Source: a virus
Taxonomy: Duplodnaviria > Heunggongvirae > Uroviricota > Caudoviricetes
DNA: 64,000 bases
Reading direction: 5' to 3' (one strand)
Virus record (IMG/VR): IMGVR_UViG_3300037312_000757
Part shown: piece after piece, positions 109 through 47,925 of the stretch
Layout of the letters: every line of letters begins with the position of its first letter
Position numbering within the stretch: the stretch's first letter is position 1
Translations under genes and position numbers: made by a program
The notes under the pieces: generated by a model
The model's input: the letters and a program-made list of their open reading frames with translations, nothing else
Told to the model about the DNA's origin: nothing
Databases searched by the model: none

Positions 109-1701
109 TTATAGGCTGAACAGATCGTTATTTGCGATTGGAGGATTAGCGTGACGCTTCTTCGCTTCCTTCTCTGCCTTCTTTTCTGCCTTAGTCTGCT
201 TGGTTTTTACAACCACTTCTTCACCTTCTACAGGAGCAGCTGGTGTTGCAACCGGGAACAGTGTGCGGTTTTCCAGTGCGCTAACGCCGGGACGCTCACC
301 AGAGATCAGATCTGAGAACTTGTTGCCTTGTTTTGCAATCAGTTCGAATGGCTTTTCAGTCACGAACAGTTCTTGCACAAACTCATCGAATTCAATGAAG
401 ATGTTTGGCAAGTGCTTGTCAGCGTCAGCACTCAACATCTTGTCTGACACGTCTTCAACCGCCTTTGCTTGCATTTGAACGTTGTGTGCCATGATGTAGA
501 AATAGCTTGCGGTATCCATGCAATAACCCTTCTCCGAAGACGGATCGGCCTGCAGAATAAAGTCACCCATCTTCAAGCGACTGCTGACTGGACTCTTGTA
601 GTGATCTGGCGACGCCAGCCGTTCTGGAGACACACCGTTGTAAATGAACCCCTCATTGCTACCAACATATTTCTTGTGCATTGGGAATTCATTGCTGATC
701 AGGTTCAAGTTCTTCTTGTTCACTGCCCAATCAACCACATAGTTACCGTTCACCGCGTACAAGAATGCCGATGCCGCGTCGTAACTGATCTGGCAGTTTG
801 GATTCACGTGTTCTGTCAACGCACGATTAACTGATGTCAAATATGCGGCTGTTGTCAAGCGGGAACGGCCAAGGACGTGAATCCAGCGATCATCACCATC
901 AAGCAAACCATCGTCACGTAGACGCACAAGCAGACGCATGGTGACTGCAGGATCACCGCCCGTTGAGCCCCCAAGTGCCCAACCTTCGAATGCACGATCG
1001 CCCCACTTCTTGGTATCGCTGAATGGTGTAACTGCATCATACCATTCATATGCTTCGTCGATACTTCGACCTTGCAACACATTCAAGAACTTTGTCTTAC
1101 CTGGTGTACGGTGCTTCATGAAGAAGTTGTTGTTCCAAACCGTACCATTCAAGCAGTTGTGGAATGGATCGTTTGTTGGCAAGCAACGTGGATTCTTTTC
1201 AGGATGGACTGGCAGATTTGGGTTGAAGTTTGGATTGACTTGTGTTGGGTCATTCATCATCAACTGTGTTGGCAAACGACCAGTGTTAATCGCCCATGCT
1301 GGCCAGTCAAGAACCATGCTGTAGTCAGCAGTGTGTTCCAACCACTTCATCAATTCGATACGTTGATCAATCGCCTTCGAACCCAGGGTGTCATCCCAGT
1401 CAAATTGCAGAACGCCAGTTGCAGCCTGGAATCCACCAGAGTCACCAATCATAACCGTCTTTGTACGGTCACGACCTTGAATCATTGGTTCACGTTCGTC
1501 ACTTGTAGCTGGATCCAAGTAAGCGTGACCGGCTGAATACAGTGCGAACTGGTAATAGAACTCATCCTTGTTCTTCTCGTCAAGGAAGTTTAATGGTGCA
1601 AATGGAATTGGTTGGCGGGCCCAATTCTTGGCATGCGCCAACACGTACATCTGACTAATAGATGGCGTGAAAATCGCATGTCCTTTTGGATGTTTAATCA
1701 T
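109..1701 (-). CDS. dpdA: TGT-family (DpdA-like) 7-deazaguanine transglycosylase
   Basis: GDSGGFQ motif, MVLDWP, NVLQG, GWALGG, WIHVLG, ISYDAAS match the TGT TIM-barrel motifs; queD in the same window; start placed at MIKHPK behind a TTGCGT..TATAAT promoter. Confidence 0.75.
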   Translation of the reverse strand: MIKHPKGHAIFTPSISQMYVLAHAKNWARQPIPFAPLNFLDEKNKDEFYYQFALYSAGHAYLDPATSDEREPMIQGRDRTKTVMIGDSGGFQAATGVLQFDWDDTLGSKAIDQRIELMKWLEHTADYSMVLDWPAWAINTGRLPTQLMMNDPTQVNPNFNPNLPVHPEKNPRCLPTNDPFHNCLNGTVWNNNFFMKHRTPGKTKFLNVLQGRSIDEAYEWYDAVTPFSDTKKWGDRAFEGWALGGSTGGDPAVTMRLLVRLRDDGLLDGDDRWIHVLGRSRLTTAAYLTSVNRALTEHVNPNCQISYDAASAFLYAVNGNYVVDWAVNKKNLNLISNEFPMHKKYVGSNEGFIYNGVSPERLASPDHYKSPVSSRLKMGDFILQADPSSEKGYCMDTASYFYIMAHNVQMQAKAVEDVSDKMLSADADKHLPNIFIEFDEFVQELFVTEKPFELIAKQGNKFSDLISGERPGVSALENRTLFPVATPAAPVEGEEVVVKTKQTKAEKKAEKEAKKRHANPPIANNDLFSL

Positions 1702-9762: not shown

Positions 9763-11154
9763 TTACTTCAACCAAGGTGTATGACCTGGCTTTTGTGGCT
9801 CATCAACTTTGGCAACTTCGTCTTTAACTTCGTCGCTTTGCTTAATGTGCTCACCAATCACGTCAATCAGCTGTTGCAAGAATTCTGGACGGCTTTCCAG
9901 AATCTCGATAACACGCTGGTTGTCGTTAGGAGCACGTTGCGTACTTGGAGTCGAATCGTTTGTACCAGCCTCTTGTTGAGCCTCTGGTGCTGTCTGTGCA
10001 GCATTATTAGTATCAACCGTAACTTCTGGTGCGATTACATCTGCTTCGCGCAATACGGCGAGAATTTCTTCGTCGCTTTCTTGTTCTTTTGCCACTTCTT
10101 CTTGTACGAACGTTGGTTCCTGCTCGTCAACAACAGGCGCAGGAGCAGTGAACACTGGCTCAATGCGTCCATGCAAATCTGCTTGAGGTTGCAGGTTGTT
10201 TTGCTGCATAACCACTACTTCTGGTTGTGCAACTTGAGAAATTGCTTCATCAGCCACTTCATCAATCTTTACTGGCATACCACGTTCGTCACCCTTGTAA
10301 CCAGGCGCATATGCCATGCTAGGTGAAACCACACGCATTTCTTCATTTGTTTGAAGATCAGATGGTTTCGTGGCCAGCGCATCAAATGCAGCATTGACCT
10401 TTGCTTTTCTTTCTTCAGCCCATTCACCGAACGAGATTGTTGCGCTAATCAGCAGAATAACGGCTAGTGGGTCGAATGCAAACATAATGACAAGAATAAC
10501 TAGGCGTACTGCTTTGTCTGTGTCTTGCCAACCAAACAGCTGAGCAACATATTTCACTGGGCCAAGCTTTGCTTCGACTTCAACAGTCTGTTGCTTGAGT
10601 GGAAGAATATCAGCATTCAGCTTTTGAATTTGCGCATTGTTGTCATTCATCTGTTTCTGGATGCTTGCGCGTTCCTTGCCTTGACTTGAACGAACACGCA
10701 AACTCTGTGTCGTCTTGTTGTTCGCCATCAGTGCATCAACACTGGCGTCAAGTTGTTTGAGCTGAGTGGTCAGACGATTATTGTTGTCTGTCAGCATTTG
10801 AATTTGTTGCTGCTTTGCGTTGACTTGAAGTTCAACACCAGCAAGCGGTGCAGCCTGTTCCAAGTGACCCTTTGACAAGAAGCCGTAGATACCGATGGAT
10901 GTGATCAACATCAGTGCCAGAACAGCGGTTGTCAAGTATAACTTGTGAATAAGATTGACGTTCTTATTTTTCCAGTTAGCGTGTAGCCAACCAGCTGCCA
11001 CAAGCTTGGATGATTCGAGCACGATCCCCATAATCATGACTGGAATTGCGGTTGCTGCGAAAAGCGCAACCAGACCAGCGACGGAGAACCATGCTGCGGT
11101 TGCTGAGATTAGTAGAGCAAAAAGTATCGTTAAGATGCCAGAAAAGAGTTTCAT
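9763..11154 (-). CDS. Membrane protein with coiled coil and acidic tail
   Basis: Three N-terminal TM helices, TSIGIYGFLSK, GPVKYVA, FDPLAV; family typical of T4-like phages. Confidence 0.8.
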   Translation of the reverse strand: MKLFSGILTILFALLISATAAWFSVAGLVALFAATAIPVMIMGIVLESSKLVAAGWLHANWKNKNVNLIHKLYLTTAVLALMLITSIGIYGFLSKGHLEQAAPLAGVELQVNAKQQQIQMLTDNNNRLTTQLKQLDASVDALMANNKTTQSLRVRSSQGKERASIQKQMNDNNAQIQKLNADILPLKQQTVEVEAKLGPVKYVAQLFGWQDTDKAVRLVILVIMFAFDPLAVILLISATISFGEWAEERKAKVNAAFDALATKPSDLQTNEEMRVVSPSMAYAPGYKGDERGMPVKIDEVADEAISQVAQPEVVVMQQNNLQPQADLHGRIEPVFTAPAPVVDEQEPTFVQEEVAKEQESDEEILAVLREADVIAPEVTVDTNNAAQTAPEAQQEAGTNDSTPSTQRAPNDNQRVIEILESRPEFLQQLIDVIGEHIKQSDEVKDEVAKVDEPQKPGHTPWLK

Positions 11155-41926: not shown

Positions 41927-42003
41927 TGGCGGTCCCTGTGGGATTCGAACCCACGACCCTTGGTTTTGAAGACCAGTGCTCTGACCGCTGGAGCTAAGGG
42001 ACC
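41927..42003 (-). tRNA. tRNA with anticodon UCA (opal suppressor, tRNA-Trp-like)
   Basis: GGTCCCT/AGGGACC acceptor, G73, encoded CCA, GCTC/GAGC D stem, loop CTTCAAA, TTCGAAT T loop, short variable loop. Confidence 0.9.
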
Positions 42004-44716: not shown

Positions 44717-45340
44717 TTACACTGCAACCGACTCAACTGCCTTGAGTGTTGCAACGCCGTCAGCGTCAATCTCAAGCGAACAATCTCGAAGACGAATTGA
44801 ACCCTTCGTACTGTCATGATCCGGTGTTTCTCGCGTCGACCATGGACACAATGCATTGACGTGATGCACGTAGAACGTTTTGCCCTTCGTTTTCAGTACC
44901 CACATGGGAATCCAGGGGAACTCGAGGTGCTTCTTGTTGAAGTGAAAGTCGACACGATCACAGTGCTCAATGCTGATCGGGAACGACGCCAGGTGTTCCT
45001 TCATCGCTTTACGCATGTTCGTGATGTTACCCATGCGAATCTTTGCCTCGTCCAGCACCGTACAGAGCTTATGGGCGGCTACTGACATACCCTTGAGCTT
45101 CTCCCTTGCTCGCGTGTAGGCAACAAAGTGTGGATTGGGCTTGTACTTTGCGTTAGGTGTACCGCGCACAGCTTCCCATTCACGTTCGTGCTCGTTCGTG
45201 AGCTTCTCGTAACGCTGCACAGTTTTCTTTTGCGCCTTGATGCGTGAGCTGACTTGCTTATAAACATCGGCCCACTGTTTGCGCCATTCTTGATAACCTG
45301 CGTAGGTGGTAAATTGGGGTTTCAGTCCGTAAATGCTCAT
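44717..45340 (-). CDS. Hypothetical protein
   Basis: FHFNKKH, W..K.KG.T.YV.H, TRETPD...TKG. Confidence 0.72.
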   Translation of the reverse strand: MSIYGLKPQFTTYAGYQEWRKQWADVYKQVSSRIKAQKKTVQRYEKLTNEHEREWEAVRGTPNAKYKPNPHFVAYTRAREKLKGMSVAAHKLCTVLDEAKIRMGNITNMRKAMKEHLASFPISIEHCDRVDFHFNKKHLEFPWIPMWVLKTKGKTFYVHHVNALCPWSTRETPDHDSTKGSIRLRDCSLEIDADGVATLKAVESVAV

Positions 45341-45342
45341 GA

Positions 45343-45693
45343 TTAAATTCCGTTCCAAGTAAGTTTAAAGAGTACCGCATCGACATGTGATTCGAAAATC
45401 ACACCAACTGTATAAGAGCAACCAGATTCCCACCCTACGTGGTCGTATTTGCTCGTACAGTTGTCAATACACCATTGTTTCATATCAGCCATTGATCCAT
45501 ATGTGAAATCATAACACTTCACCAGAAACCAATTAGCTGGATATTTCTTACGCACTTCTGCGATGGCGTATGAGTCTTCCCATTCATCTTCACCAACGAA
45601 GTCGTCGAAATCAAGTTCGTCGTTCTTCGTTTCCACTTCTACTTCTTTCTTTCCCAACAAATTTTTCAATGCTTGAAACATTGGTGTCTCCAT
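45343..45693 (-). CDS. FKLxW-family small protein (dispersed copy)
   Basis: WCIDNC...FESHVDAVLFKLTW. Confidence 0.78.
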   Translation of the reverse strand: METPMFQALKNLLGKKEVEVETKNDELDFDDFVGEDEWEDSYAIAEVRKKYPANWFLVKCYDFTYGSMADMKQWCIDNCTSKYDHVGWESGCSYTVGVIFESHVDAVLFKLTWNGI

Positions 45694-45925
45694 TTTCTTG
45701 TTTTTCTGTTATTTGGTCACCAAATGCGAACAAGAACGCCATTGCTTCTAGTCGATCCTCTATTCTCCAAAAGTGGAATCGACCTGACTTCTTGTCGCGA
45801 CCTCTAAGCCATGTGGGTCTAATGGATAACTGTTCCACCGACTCACGTTTGATACGAGCCATTGCCTTGTGGAAGCTTTCACCGTCGCCGCCAAAAGGAG
45901 TCCGAACCTCGTATGTTATTGACAT
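45611..45925 (-). CDS. FKLxW-family small protein (dispersed copy)
   Basis: IEDRLEAMAFLFAF. Confidence 0.6.
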   Translation of the reverse strand: MSITYEVRTPFGGDGESFHKAMARIKRESVEQLSIRPTWLRGRDKKSGRFHFWRIEDRLEAMAFLFAFGDQITEKQENGDTNVSSIEKFVGKERSRSGNEERRT

Positions 45926-46356
45926 AGCGAGAACCTCTTGGTGATGTGATGAATTTCTGCTTTGCGAGCAGGACCGATACCCAGCGCAGTGATGATGGGT
46001 TCGCCTGTAAAAGCAGTGCCAGGGATGATGTGATGCTGATCGATAATCAGTTCACAGGGAATGCCAGCTTCCTTTGCGGCGTCGTACGCCTTCAGAATCG
46101 CGTCTTGGTTCTTGGCCTTCAGGCAGATTTTCGTGCCGATGCCGTCTCGCTGGTAAAAATCAGCGATATCAGGACGCTCTTTGAGAGCTTTGAGGTATGC
46201 ATTGAGATACGCGTGTCCGGCTTGTGCGGCAAGTTTGCCGGCAGACATGTTGAGATCGCCTCGCGTAATGGCGTAAAGACGATATGGGTCCTCTTCAGCT
46301 TCCGTTGCGGAATTCTGGAGGAACTCTTGCACTCAGCGATGGTCGAGATGATTCAT
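45916..46356 (-). CDS. pth2: Peptidyl-tRNA hydrolase Pth2 family; in-frame UGA at 46333-46335 (or GTG start at 46332)
   Basis: R.DL.MS.GKLAAQAGHA, K.CLK, IID, TALGIGP; best SD precedes ATG 46356. Confidence 0.85.
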
Positions 46357-46453
46357 TTCATTTGCTCCTTTTAGGGTTTCAGTTAGCTAGTGAAGATGTT
46401 TCACTAGAGATCATACTCTAGCATCGTACATCTTCACCGTGCAAATATTTATT

Positions 46454-47392
46454 TCACTTTGTTGCGTCGAGGTAACGAACGGCATCCAATGCAGCTTGAC
46501 AACCTGATCCAGCACTTGTGATGGCTTGACTATACACTGGGTCGGCAACGTCACCGCAAGCAAACACACCAGCTTTGCCGGTTCCTGTTTGGAACGTCAG
46601 ACCCTTTGTAGTCTTGATGAAGCCATAGTCATCAAGCATCAGCTGATCTTTGAACAGATCAGTATTTGGCTTGTGACCGATTGCAATAAACACGCCCGGT
46701 AGCCGGATTGATGTCAATGCTTGGCCGTTTGTGATGCTGATGGAATGCACACCGTTGTCATCACCATGTACTTCACGTAATGTAGAGTTCAGATGCAGCA
46801 CAATCTTGCCTTCATTGACCTTTTCCATCAAGTGATCGATCATGACTTGCTCAGCCTTGAATGTGTCACGACGATGGATCAAATGCACCTTGCTTGCGAT
46901 GTTGGACAGATACAGAGCTTCTTCAACCGCAGTGTTACCGCCACCAACTACCGCAACTTCCTGACCTTCATAGAAAAAGCCGTCACATGTTGCACAGCCT
47001 GATACACCACGTCCAAGGAATTCTTGCTCTGATGGCAGACCCAAATACTTAGCTGAAGCACCAGTCGCGATGATCAGCGAATCGCAAGTGTATGTGTCAC
47101 CAGTTTCTGTTGTCAGGGTGTATGGCTTGGTGTTGAGGTCAACGTTATTGACATAATCAATCACTACATTTGCACCAAAGCGAGTAGCGTGATCCTCGAG
47201 ACGTTGCATGAGGTCTGGGCCCATGATGCCTGTGACGTCGCCTGGCCAATTGTCAACTGTGGTGGTGGTCATCAGCTGGCCACCTTTGTCGAAGCCAGTG
47301 ATAACCGTTGGCTTCAAGCCTGCTCGTGCAGCGTAAAGGGCAGCGGTCCAACCAGCCGGGCCACTACCGAGAATAATGAGTTTTGAATGCAT
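46454..47392 (-). CDS. trxB: Thioredoxin reductase
   Basis: [42 protein letters not shown]. Confidence 0.96.
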
Positions 47393-47466: not shown

Positions 47467-47859
47467 TTACTTGATGTACGGCTTGACGTGCTCGACTGCC
47501 ATCTTGTAGCGCTTGCCATCGGCAGCTTCGACCTGCACCGGGTATTCGCGCGCCTTCGTGTTCCAGCCGATGATCTTGAACGTACCGAGCCGCGGATGGC
47601 TGTAGCTCTTCTCGAGGTCGATACCCGGGAGATACAGCTTCGCGTACACCTCCAGAGCACTGGCCTTGCGTTCTTGCTTGCGACCTTCACTACCTTGCGT
47701 CATGAACTCGACCTTCACGAGACTCGACGTCGGCGAGAACGACGCTCCGCGCACTGCCACGTTCAGGCCGTACTTCTTGGCAAACTCCTGCAGGTGAGCG
47801 TTGAGTGCAGCGTTGAGGTCACGTGCAACTGCGCGGTCGAACTGTTGAACTTTTTCCAT
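47467..47859 (-). CDS. Hypothetical protein
   Basis: AAGGAG SD; TTGACT-17-TATCAT promoter; biased codons. Confidence 0.75.
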   Translation of the reverse strand: MEKVQQFDRAVARDLNAALNAHLQEFAKKYGLNVAVRGASFSPTSSLVKVEFMTQGSEGRKQERKASALEVYAKLYLPGIDLEKSYSHPRLGTFKIIGWNTKAREYPVQVEAADGKRYKMAVEHVKPYIK

Positions 47860-47925
47860 TTGTTGCTCTCCTTTGTTGTTTACCATGCATCAAATGATAA
47901 GTTCACTTGAACCGCCAGTCAACAC

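Follow-up and report, generated by a model that had tools for sequence, protein, structure and literature searches.

An early in-frame stop codon in a phage peptidyl-tRNA hydrolase gene and its probable readthrough by a matching phage suppressor tRNA

The gene for release factor 2 (RF2), prfB, contains an early in-frame UGA, which ribosomes pass by shifting into the +1 frame at CUU UGA with the help of an internal Shine-Dalgarno (SD) sequence, and the stop is one that the product of the gene itself reads. Viral readthrough, as in the A1 protein of Q-beta at UGA or gag-pol of MuLV at UAG, is performed by host tRNAs at a low and fixed rate and yields a minor product with a C-terminal extension. 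The bar minigenes of phage lambda are toxic when the host peptidyl-tRNA hydrolase (Pth) is limiting, and they gate nothing. In recoded phages (code 15 and code 4; crAss-like and Lak phages), in-frame stops are made readable by suppressor tRNAs of the phage itself, a device that has been suggested to determine when particular genes are expressed (bioRxiv 10.1101/2021.08.26.457843, PMC7886860, PMC9523058). Suppressor tRNAs were also described in the papers on Atu_ph07 (PMC6102473) and XacN1 (PMC5852040), two cultured jumbo phages of standard code, in which no target was reported for them. In full-text literature searches we found no paper that describes a Pth2 gated by a stop codon or that assigns a target to these suppressor tRNAs. 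Here we analyze a window of 64,000 nucleotides from a virus of the Caudoviricetes (IMG/VR record IMGVR_UViG_3300037312_000757), and we suggest, with a probability of roughly 80% judged from sequence comparisons, that one of the two Pth2 enzymes of this phage, Pth2-A, is translated only by readthrough of an early stop codon that depends on a suppressor tRNA.

The window is part of a complete virus record of 523,836 bp with terminal repeats; among cultured phages, Sinorhizobium phage Phosso and Agrobacterium phage Atu_ph07 are the closest to it. The pth2-A gene is placed between the genes of a tmRNA and of a tRNA(UCA), the latter being 4.3 kb away on the same strand (Table 1). The first-pass annotation of the window had claimed that the pth2 frame carries an in-frame UGA at codon 8, that the only good SD belongs to the ATG upstream of it and that a phage tRNA-UCA lies at this distance, and all of these were borne out. 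The leader ATG, the TGA and the GTG share one frame with the complete PTH2 domain, and the leader and the enzyme form a single frame of 146 residues when UGA is read as sense. The energy of the duplex with the anti-SD was -7.9 kcal/mol for the leader ATG, versus +0.4 for the GTG after the stop, and the tRNA was identified by both ARAGORN and Rfam. No matches were obtained in a megablast search of the pth2-A locus against the phage collection, and the folding of RNA in the leader region was no better than that of shuffled sequence (z = -1.4). A perfect 8-bp inverted repeat, CTAGTGAA-acatc-TTCACTAG, occupies 46385-46405 on the minus strand in the 5' UTR, about 15 nt before the SD, and a similar repeat is found in L060, the nearest relative.

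Table 1. Features of the pth2-A locus and related sites. Positions are those of the window, unless given as genome positions or preceded by the name of another locus (L numbers).
Feature	Position	Strand	Basis or remark
SD sequence AAGGAG	46370-46365	minus	8-nt spacer caaatgaa to leader ATG; read from sequence
Leader ATG AAT CAT CTC GAC CAT CGC (MNHLDHR), 7 sense codons	46336..46356, ATG 46356-46354	minus	Sequence; comparison with L060
In-frame UGA, codon 8 (proposed gate)	46335-46333	minus	Same position TGA in L060, TAG in sister L061
GTG directly 3' of UGA	46332-46330	minus	Without SD of its own
Pth2-A coding region, PTH2 fold	45916..46332	minus	Ends at TAA 45918-45916; Pfam PF01981, 89 bits
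tRNA(UCA), opal suppressor type, 77 nt, CCA encoded	41927-42003	minus	ARAGORN; Rfam tRNA 63.4 bits
Permuted alphaproteobacterial-type tmRNA, tag ANDNVFAMAA	49089-49571	minus	ARAGORN; Rfam RF01849 96 bits, RF04321 121 bits
Out-of-frame ATG AAA TGA mini-ORF	46353..46361	minus	Real sequence, judged to be chance
Three overlapping ORFs 3' of pth2-A	45611-45925, 45343-45693, 44717-45358	minus	ORF list
Thioredoxin-reductase-like flavoprotein, directly 5' of pth2-A	46454-47392	minus	Pyr_redox_2, E = 2e-49
ORF preceding the flavoprotein gene	47467-47886	minus	Weak HicB-like PHROG match
Pth2-B, ordinary start	genome 444896-445297		Second Pth2 paralogue
RF-1-domain ORF (ArfB-like, 187-aa open frame, L130)	genome 449777-450091		5 kb from Pth2-B
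Shifted-leader tRNA; leader site	L096:895-969; 1103-1115		
Shifted-leader tRNA; leader site	L106:9721-9802; ~9894-9910		
Shifted-leader tRNA; leader site	L116:559-638; 735-750		

The PTH2 profile (PF01981) matched residues 18-137 of the ORF counted from the GTG, covering profile positions 2-115 of 115 with a score of 89.3 bits against a cut-off of 23, and the matches in the PDB were 2zv3, 1wn2 and 1q7s. In an alignment of 12 clade members, D98 and T115 were invariant and K33 was nearly so, the sole change being an Arg in L069. In the alignment with the archaeal structure 2zv3, these three residues fall at its GK, D and T positions; the Lys of the GK motif, the Asp and the Thr are the catalytic residues of archaeal Pth2. 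With a profile match over the whole domain and the conserved Lys, Asp and Thr, Pth2-A is a putative hydrolase of the PTH2 family. Residue 3 of 2zv3 aligns with residue 19 of Pth2-A, and a start at an internal Met would therefore remove the first beta strand. Such starts are used in the GenBank models of pth2-A, which begin at the internal Met of a DLEM motif in Phosso (L001:2414-2908) and in Atu_ph07 (gp256; L002:2429-2878). These models would delete the first beta strand and hide both the leader and the stop, and the database entries can be corrected accordingly.

A lone in-frame stop is the usual mark of a pseudogene, and this phage has no tRNA-Trp(CCA) and a tRNA(UCA) that is Trp-like. It could thus be supposed that the gene is broken, that the assembly is in error or that TGA means Trp throughout the genome. 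However, L060, which comes from an independent metagenome, has the same stop, and 47 distinct sequences share the layout, with the catalytic-type residues conserved. As for the code, ORFs of at least 100 aa make up 85% of the genome under table 11, and 134 of the 459 long predicted genes (29%) end in TGA. No believable internal in-frame stops were found in conserved genes by cross-genome tblastn, which returned antisense shadow ORFs only. The phage uses the standard code; TGA is neither present inside many genes nor avoided as a terminator, as it would be in a recoded phage of code 4. We regard a broken, misassembled or recoded gene as the least probable of the alternatives weighed here.

The layout is also unique in this genome. 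We scanned all 523,836 bp for an ATG with a good SD whose leader is no longer than 10 codons and runs into a stop, with at least 70 codons of coding ORF behind it, and applied a filter on codon usage. There were three cases, all with TGA, and pth2-A was the only one without a nearby SD-start of its own. The two others, at genome positions 311251 and 439356, were rejected, one having a strong SD-ATG 15 codons downstream and the other being antisense-like. Because the layout of pth2-A is unique in the genome scan and recurrent across its clade, we consider that it is more than chance.

The recurrence was seen after scanning of IMG/VR and the JGI metagenomes, which gave 65 further loci and, after deduplication, 47 distinct clade proteins. 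An alignment of phage pth2 homologues had been proposed in the first-pass annotation as a way to find out whether the early stop is conserved, with homologues lacking the leader as evidence to the contrary. The homologues do have the leader: with the exception of the outgroup, all 47 distinct sequences of this clade (clade A) possess an SD-ATG, a short leader and a stop, and GTT, ATT, GAA, CAA and other codons stand at the position of the GTG. Among the distinct leaders that are short and in frame with the enzyme (31 in number, with 1-8 sense codons), the stop is TAG in 27, TGA in three and TAA in one, and a purine comes next after it in 29. In Phosso the gene opens with AGGAG, 8 nt, and ATG AAG TAT TAG GTT, and in Atu_ph07 with ATG ATT GGC GAA CAC TTT TGA ATT after a weak SD (-3.9 kcal/mol); both leaders are in frame with the enzyme, and in neither phage was a canonical start found before the fold. 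L060, with a protein identity of 92-93%, has the leader MKHLDHR in place of MNHLDHR, with synonymous changes at two codons (GAC/GAT and CGC/AGG). Another leader family, MLTNSFL, is kept through the synonymous codons TTG/CTT/CTC and ACC/ACG/ACT. Since these peptides are conserved by way of synonymous changes, the leaders appear to be translated in that frame.

The ordinary Pth2 genes provide a comparison. This phage, Phosso and Atu_ph07 each carry two Pth2 paralogues, and in each of them paralogue B starts in the ordinary way, at an SD-ATG. Normal starts were also found in more distant phage Pth2 genes, namely those of Xoo-sp13, RsoM2USA, two huge-phage assemblies, phiCbK, phiM12, Kikimora and Astolliot. 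Pseudomonas phage Astolliot appeared to be gated according to its annotation, but the gene is actually of the B type with a TTG start and was rejected as a candidate. Some carriers of a gated pth2-A (L083, L090 and L106) are on contigs of 1.86, 1.54 and 0.94 Mb, which are far above the size of known phages, and their sources may be prophages or cellular genomes. In another group, two in-frame TAG codons, 20 codons apart, precede the fold (L107:5880-5965, and likewise L111-L115, L126 and L127), with a tRNA(CUA) about 240 nt upstream; the second of these TAG codons is CAG in L109 and L110.

The arrangement might be explained by termination and reinitiation, in which the seven-codon leader would be a uORF that couples termination at the UGA to a restart at the GTG next to it, without any involvement of the tRNA. 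A start codon does adjoin the stop in this phage and L060 (GTG) and in L097, L124 and L128 (ATG), and the GTG is without an SD of its own, as a coupled start would be. However, the stop is followed by none of ATG, GTG and TTG in 26 of the 31 leaders, which have GTT, ATT, GAA, CAA, ACT or similar codons instead, and most loci have no canonical start ahead of the first beta strand, a part of the fold according to the 2zv3 alignment. The codon homologous to the GTG is GTT in the sister locus L061, as well as in Phosso and L065, and Val (GTN) is common at this position. This alignment with Val codons makes reinitiation unlikely, and the GTG most likely encodes Val rather than serving as a start. 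Reinitiation would also leave unexplained why TAA is nearly absent and why the stop follows the anticodon of the tRNA. We therefore consider it improbable as the general explanation, and some partial reinitiation at the GTG may take place in this phage and in L060, where the GTG adjoins the stop.

The correspondence between stop and anticodon is the evidence that ties the leader to the phage tRNA. A tRNA(UCA) is paired with the TGA leaders of this phage, L060 and Atu_ph07, and a tRNA(CUA) with the TAG leaders of Phosso, L061, L062, L063, L070, L071, L078, L085, L086, L100, L105, L107-L115, L118, L124 and L125. There was no mismatch in any locus or genome with a visible suppressor; the match was scored only in these, and for many loci the 20 kb retrieved contain no suppressor. 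Scans of the whole genomes gave two tRNA(CUA) genes in Phosso (TAG) and a tRNA(UCA) in Atu_ph07 (TGA). The maximum-likelihood tree shows at least two independent changes from TAG to TGA, both accompanied by a tRNA(UCA): once in this phage and L060, of which the sister L061 has TAG, and once in Atu_ph07, of which the sister L066 has TAG. In many lineages, the suppressor tRNA is located 90-250 nt upstream of the leader. The co-occurrence of early stop and suppressor tRNA, which the first-pass annotation had put forward as a check, was thus found wherever a suppressor was seen, and together with the conserved leader it lends comparative support to the link that it had drawn between the phage tRNA(UCA) and the UGA of pth2. 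An ochre version of the leader was observed in L082 (9914-9931), which reads ATG TTG TAA ATT where its kin have ATG TTG TAG ATT; this TAA leader predicts a tRNA(UUA) elsewhere on the 90-kb contig of L082. Next to two tRNA(CUA) genes, L062 has a tRNA with an 8-nt anticodon loop (1944-2020; anticodon GGAA by ARAGORN), which lies downstream of the pth2-A leader at a distance of 0.7 kb.

The same correspondence bears on the possibility that pth2-A senses release factor without any phage tRNA. By the logic of prfB, a near-cognate host tRNA-Trp would read the UGA when RF2 is scarce. UGA is the leakiest stop codon, and here, as in prfB, it stands early in the gene and in frame. But most of the relatives have UAG and one has UAA, and a matching dedicated tRNA is present wherever a suppressor was seen. 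The leader and the enzyme share their frame, so that no frameshift is needed, and there is no CUU-UGA slippery site or internal SD of the prfB type. A sensor of this kind seems to us even less probable than reinitiation.

The tRNA(UCA) is the only suppressor among the 59 tRNAs of the genome, which serve 19 amino acids and include none for Trp. It is isolated at genome positions 190515-190591, whereas the tRNA clusters are at 337-442 kb, and a promoter-like sequence, TTGACT-16-TAGAAT, lies by it at 42053-42026 of the window. It has a 7-nt loop, CUUCAAA, and the discriminator G73, and its anticodon and T arms resemble those of the tRNA-Trp(CCA) of Phosso. No TrpRS was found in this phage. It is plausible that Trp is the residue inserted at UGA, because the tRNA has G73 and Trp-like arms and is the sole candidate for a Trp tRNA in a phage whose remaining tRNAs cover 19 amino acids. 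Possibly it reads UGG as well as UGA.

The first-pass annotation had further pointed to a minigene, ATG AAA TGA, that overlaps the start out of frame, and had likened it to lambda bar as a sensor of Pth activity. The mini-ORF does exist in this phage, but L060 has only one ATG at this place and lacks the mini-ORF, as do all the other leaders, and the part of the proposal that made it a sensor found no support. It is only 3 nt from the SD, and a conserved ORF of 2-3 codons with a functional SD of its own, as in a minigene of the bar type, is not what we observed. It looks like chance, a by-product of a local duplication of ATGAA. In a wider form of the idea, tRNA would be trapped as peptidyl-tRNA by this mini-ORF or else by the leader, and Pth activity would be sensed in this way; drop-off is known for ORFs in the size range of the leaders of 1-8 codons. 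There is, however, no evident route from drop-off to an increased synthesis of Pth2, and we would rank this explanation a little below the release-factor sensor.

The readthrough of a stop by the phage tRNA remains our preferred reading, and in a subclade of the relatives it may take another form. In L091, L092/L094, L096, L106, L116/L117 and L120, the SD-ATG is followed by 1-4 codons and a TAG, and this leader is in the -1 frame relative to the enzyme, so a +1 shift at the TAG is needed to reach it. Where the site is UAG-C (L106, L116 and L117), a tRNA with the anticodon GCU followed by A37 is found directly upstream, and where it is UAG-A (L096), the tRNA in this place has UCU and then A, so that in both cases the tRNA fits the shifted reading. 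The anticodon arms of these tRNAs are enlarged or irregular, with 18-19 nt instead of 17 (19 nt in L106 and L116). For the tRNA of L096, ARAGORN gave a loop of 8 nt with four Watson-Crick pairs in the stem, versus a 7-nt loop and three pairs by Rfam. A relaxed Rfam scan for missed tRNAs in L091, L092 and L120 gave none.

Other elements of the neighborhood concern ribosome rescue. A tmRNA near pth2-A is present also in L060, L061, L067, L101 and L125, and the tmRNA, Pth2-B and the RF-1-domain ORF of this phage make up a large ribosome-rescue toolkit. The three overlapping ORFs after pth2-A are possibly coupled to it in translation. The 213-aa product of the last one (44717-45358), just downstream of pth2-A, was found by tblastn also in Phosso, Atu_ph07 and 10 metagenomic loci. 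Its predicted fold is a long coiled-coil hairpin with a small beta domain (pLDDT 88), for which there was no structural match in the PDB and no name in the Atlas, Pfam or PHROG.

We propose that the gate would work as follows. Ribosomes would load at AAGGAG and the ATG at 46356 and arrive at the UGA of codon 8. If RF2 acts there, a peptide of seven residues would be released and no enzyme made. If the phage tRNA(UCA) decodes the UGA instead, translation would continue into the PTH2 domain and produce Pth2-A of 146 residues. The tRNA(UCA) would then be an obligatory trans-acting activator of this one gene, and how much Pth2-A is made would depend on how far the suppressor prevails over the release factor. 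Our comparisons show the architecture, that it is conserved and that the stop varies together with the anticodon; the readthrough in infected cells, its efficiency and the residue inserted are inferred. Strong suppression should be costly to a phage in which 134 of 459 long genes end in TGA, and suppression may therefore be weak or limited in time.

Why a phage would keep such a gate is a more doubtful matter, and any specific purpose should be regarded as unlikely rather than likely. The gate may tie Pth2-A, and perhaps the overlapping genes downstream, to the time or degree at which the stop-reading tRNA is active. The enzyme could clear the by-products of stop-codon readthrough alongside the neighboring tmRNA, as a feed-forward guard; a timer of the infection stage could fit as well. 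In a broader and tentative interpretation, to which we would give somewhat less than even odds, the suppressor tRNA and the pth2-A leader are a dedicated lock and key that co-evolve. The main job of the tRNA in jumbo phages of standard code would be to switch on this one operon. The same lock would have been fitted to each of the stops UGA, UAG and UAA, and in some lineages a matching tRNA in the neighborhood would perform a +1 or four-base reading of UAGC or UAGA. If this is true, the dosage of Pth2-A would be a read-out of suppressor activity and, with the phage tmRNA, would serve as a feed-forward guard against readthrough damage.

With one Pth2 paralogue that seems to need the override of a stop, this locus and its relatives offer a conserved and testable target for orphan suppressor tRNAs. 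If confirmed, the gate would be a natural translational switch operated by a tRNA in a virus that otherwise relies on the standard code, and it would connect the suppression of stop codons with the recycling of peptidyl-tRNA and with tmRNA rescue. Direct testing is possible because two carriers, Atu_ph07 (UGA) and Phosso (UAG), are in culture.

Among the known systems, Atu_ph07 is a true relative and has both of the parts found here, a tRNA(UCA) and a Pth (gp256). The recoded phages resemble pth2-A in that a suppressor tRNA of the phage renders an in-frame stop readable. In those phages, however, many (late) genes contain many in-frame stops and the codon is largely dropped as a terminator, whereas here there is one stop behind a tiny leader in one gene, under the standard code. 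Lambda bar shares with pth2-A a very short ORF and the theme of peptidyl-tRNA hydrolysis, and the out-of-frame minigene of this phage is not conserved. As in Q-beta and MuLV, a tRNA would read the stop and the protein would be extended, but in pth2-A the stop precedes the entire enzyme, and the cognate tRNA is one that the virus supplies. As in prfB, the output would depend on the efficiency of termination at an early in-frame UGA; unlike prfB, pth2-A keeps its frame, and the decoder would be a dedicated tRNA.
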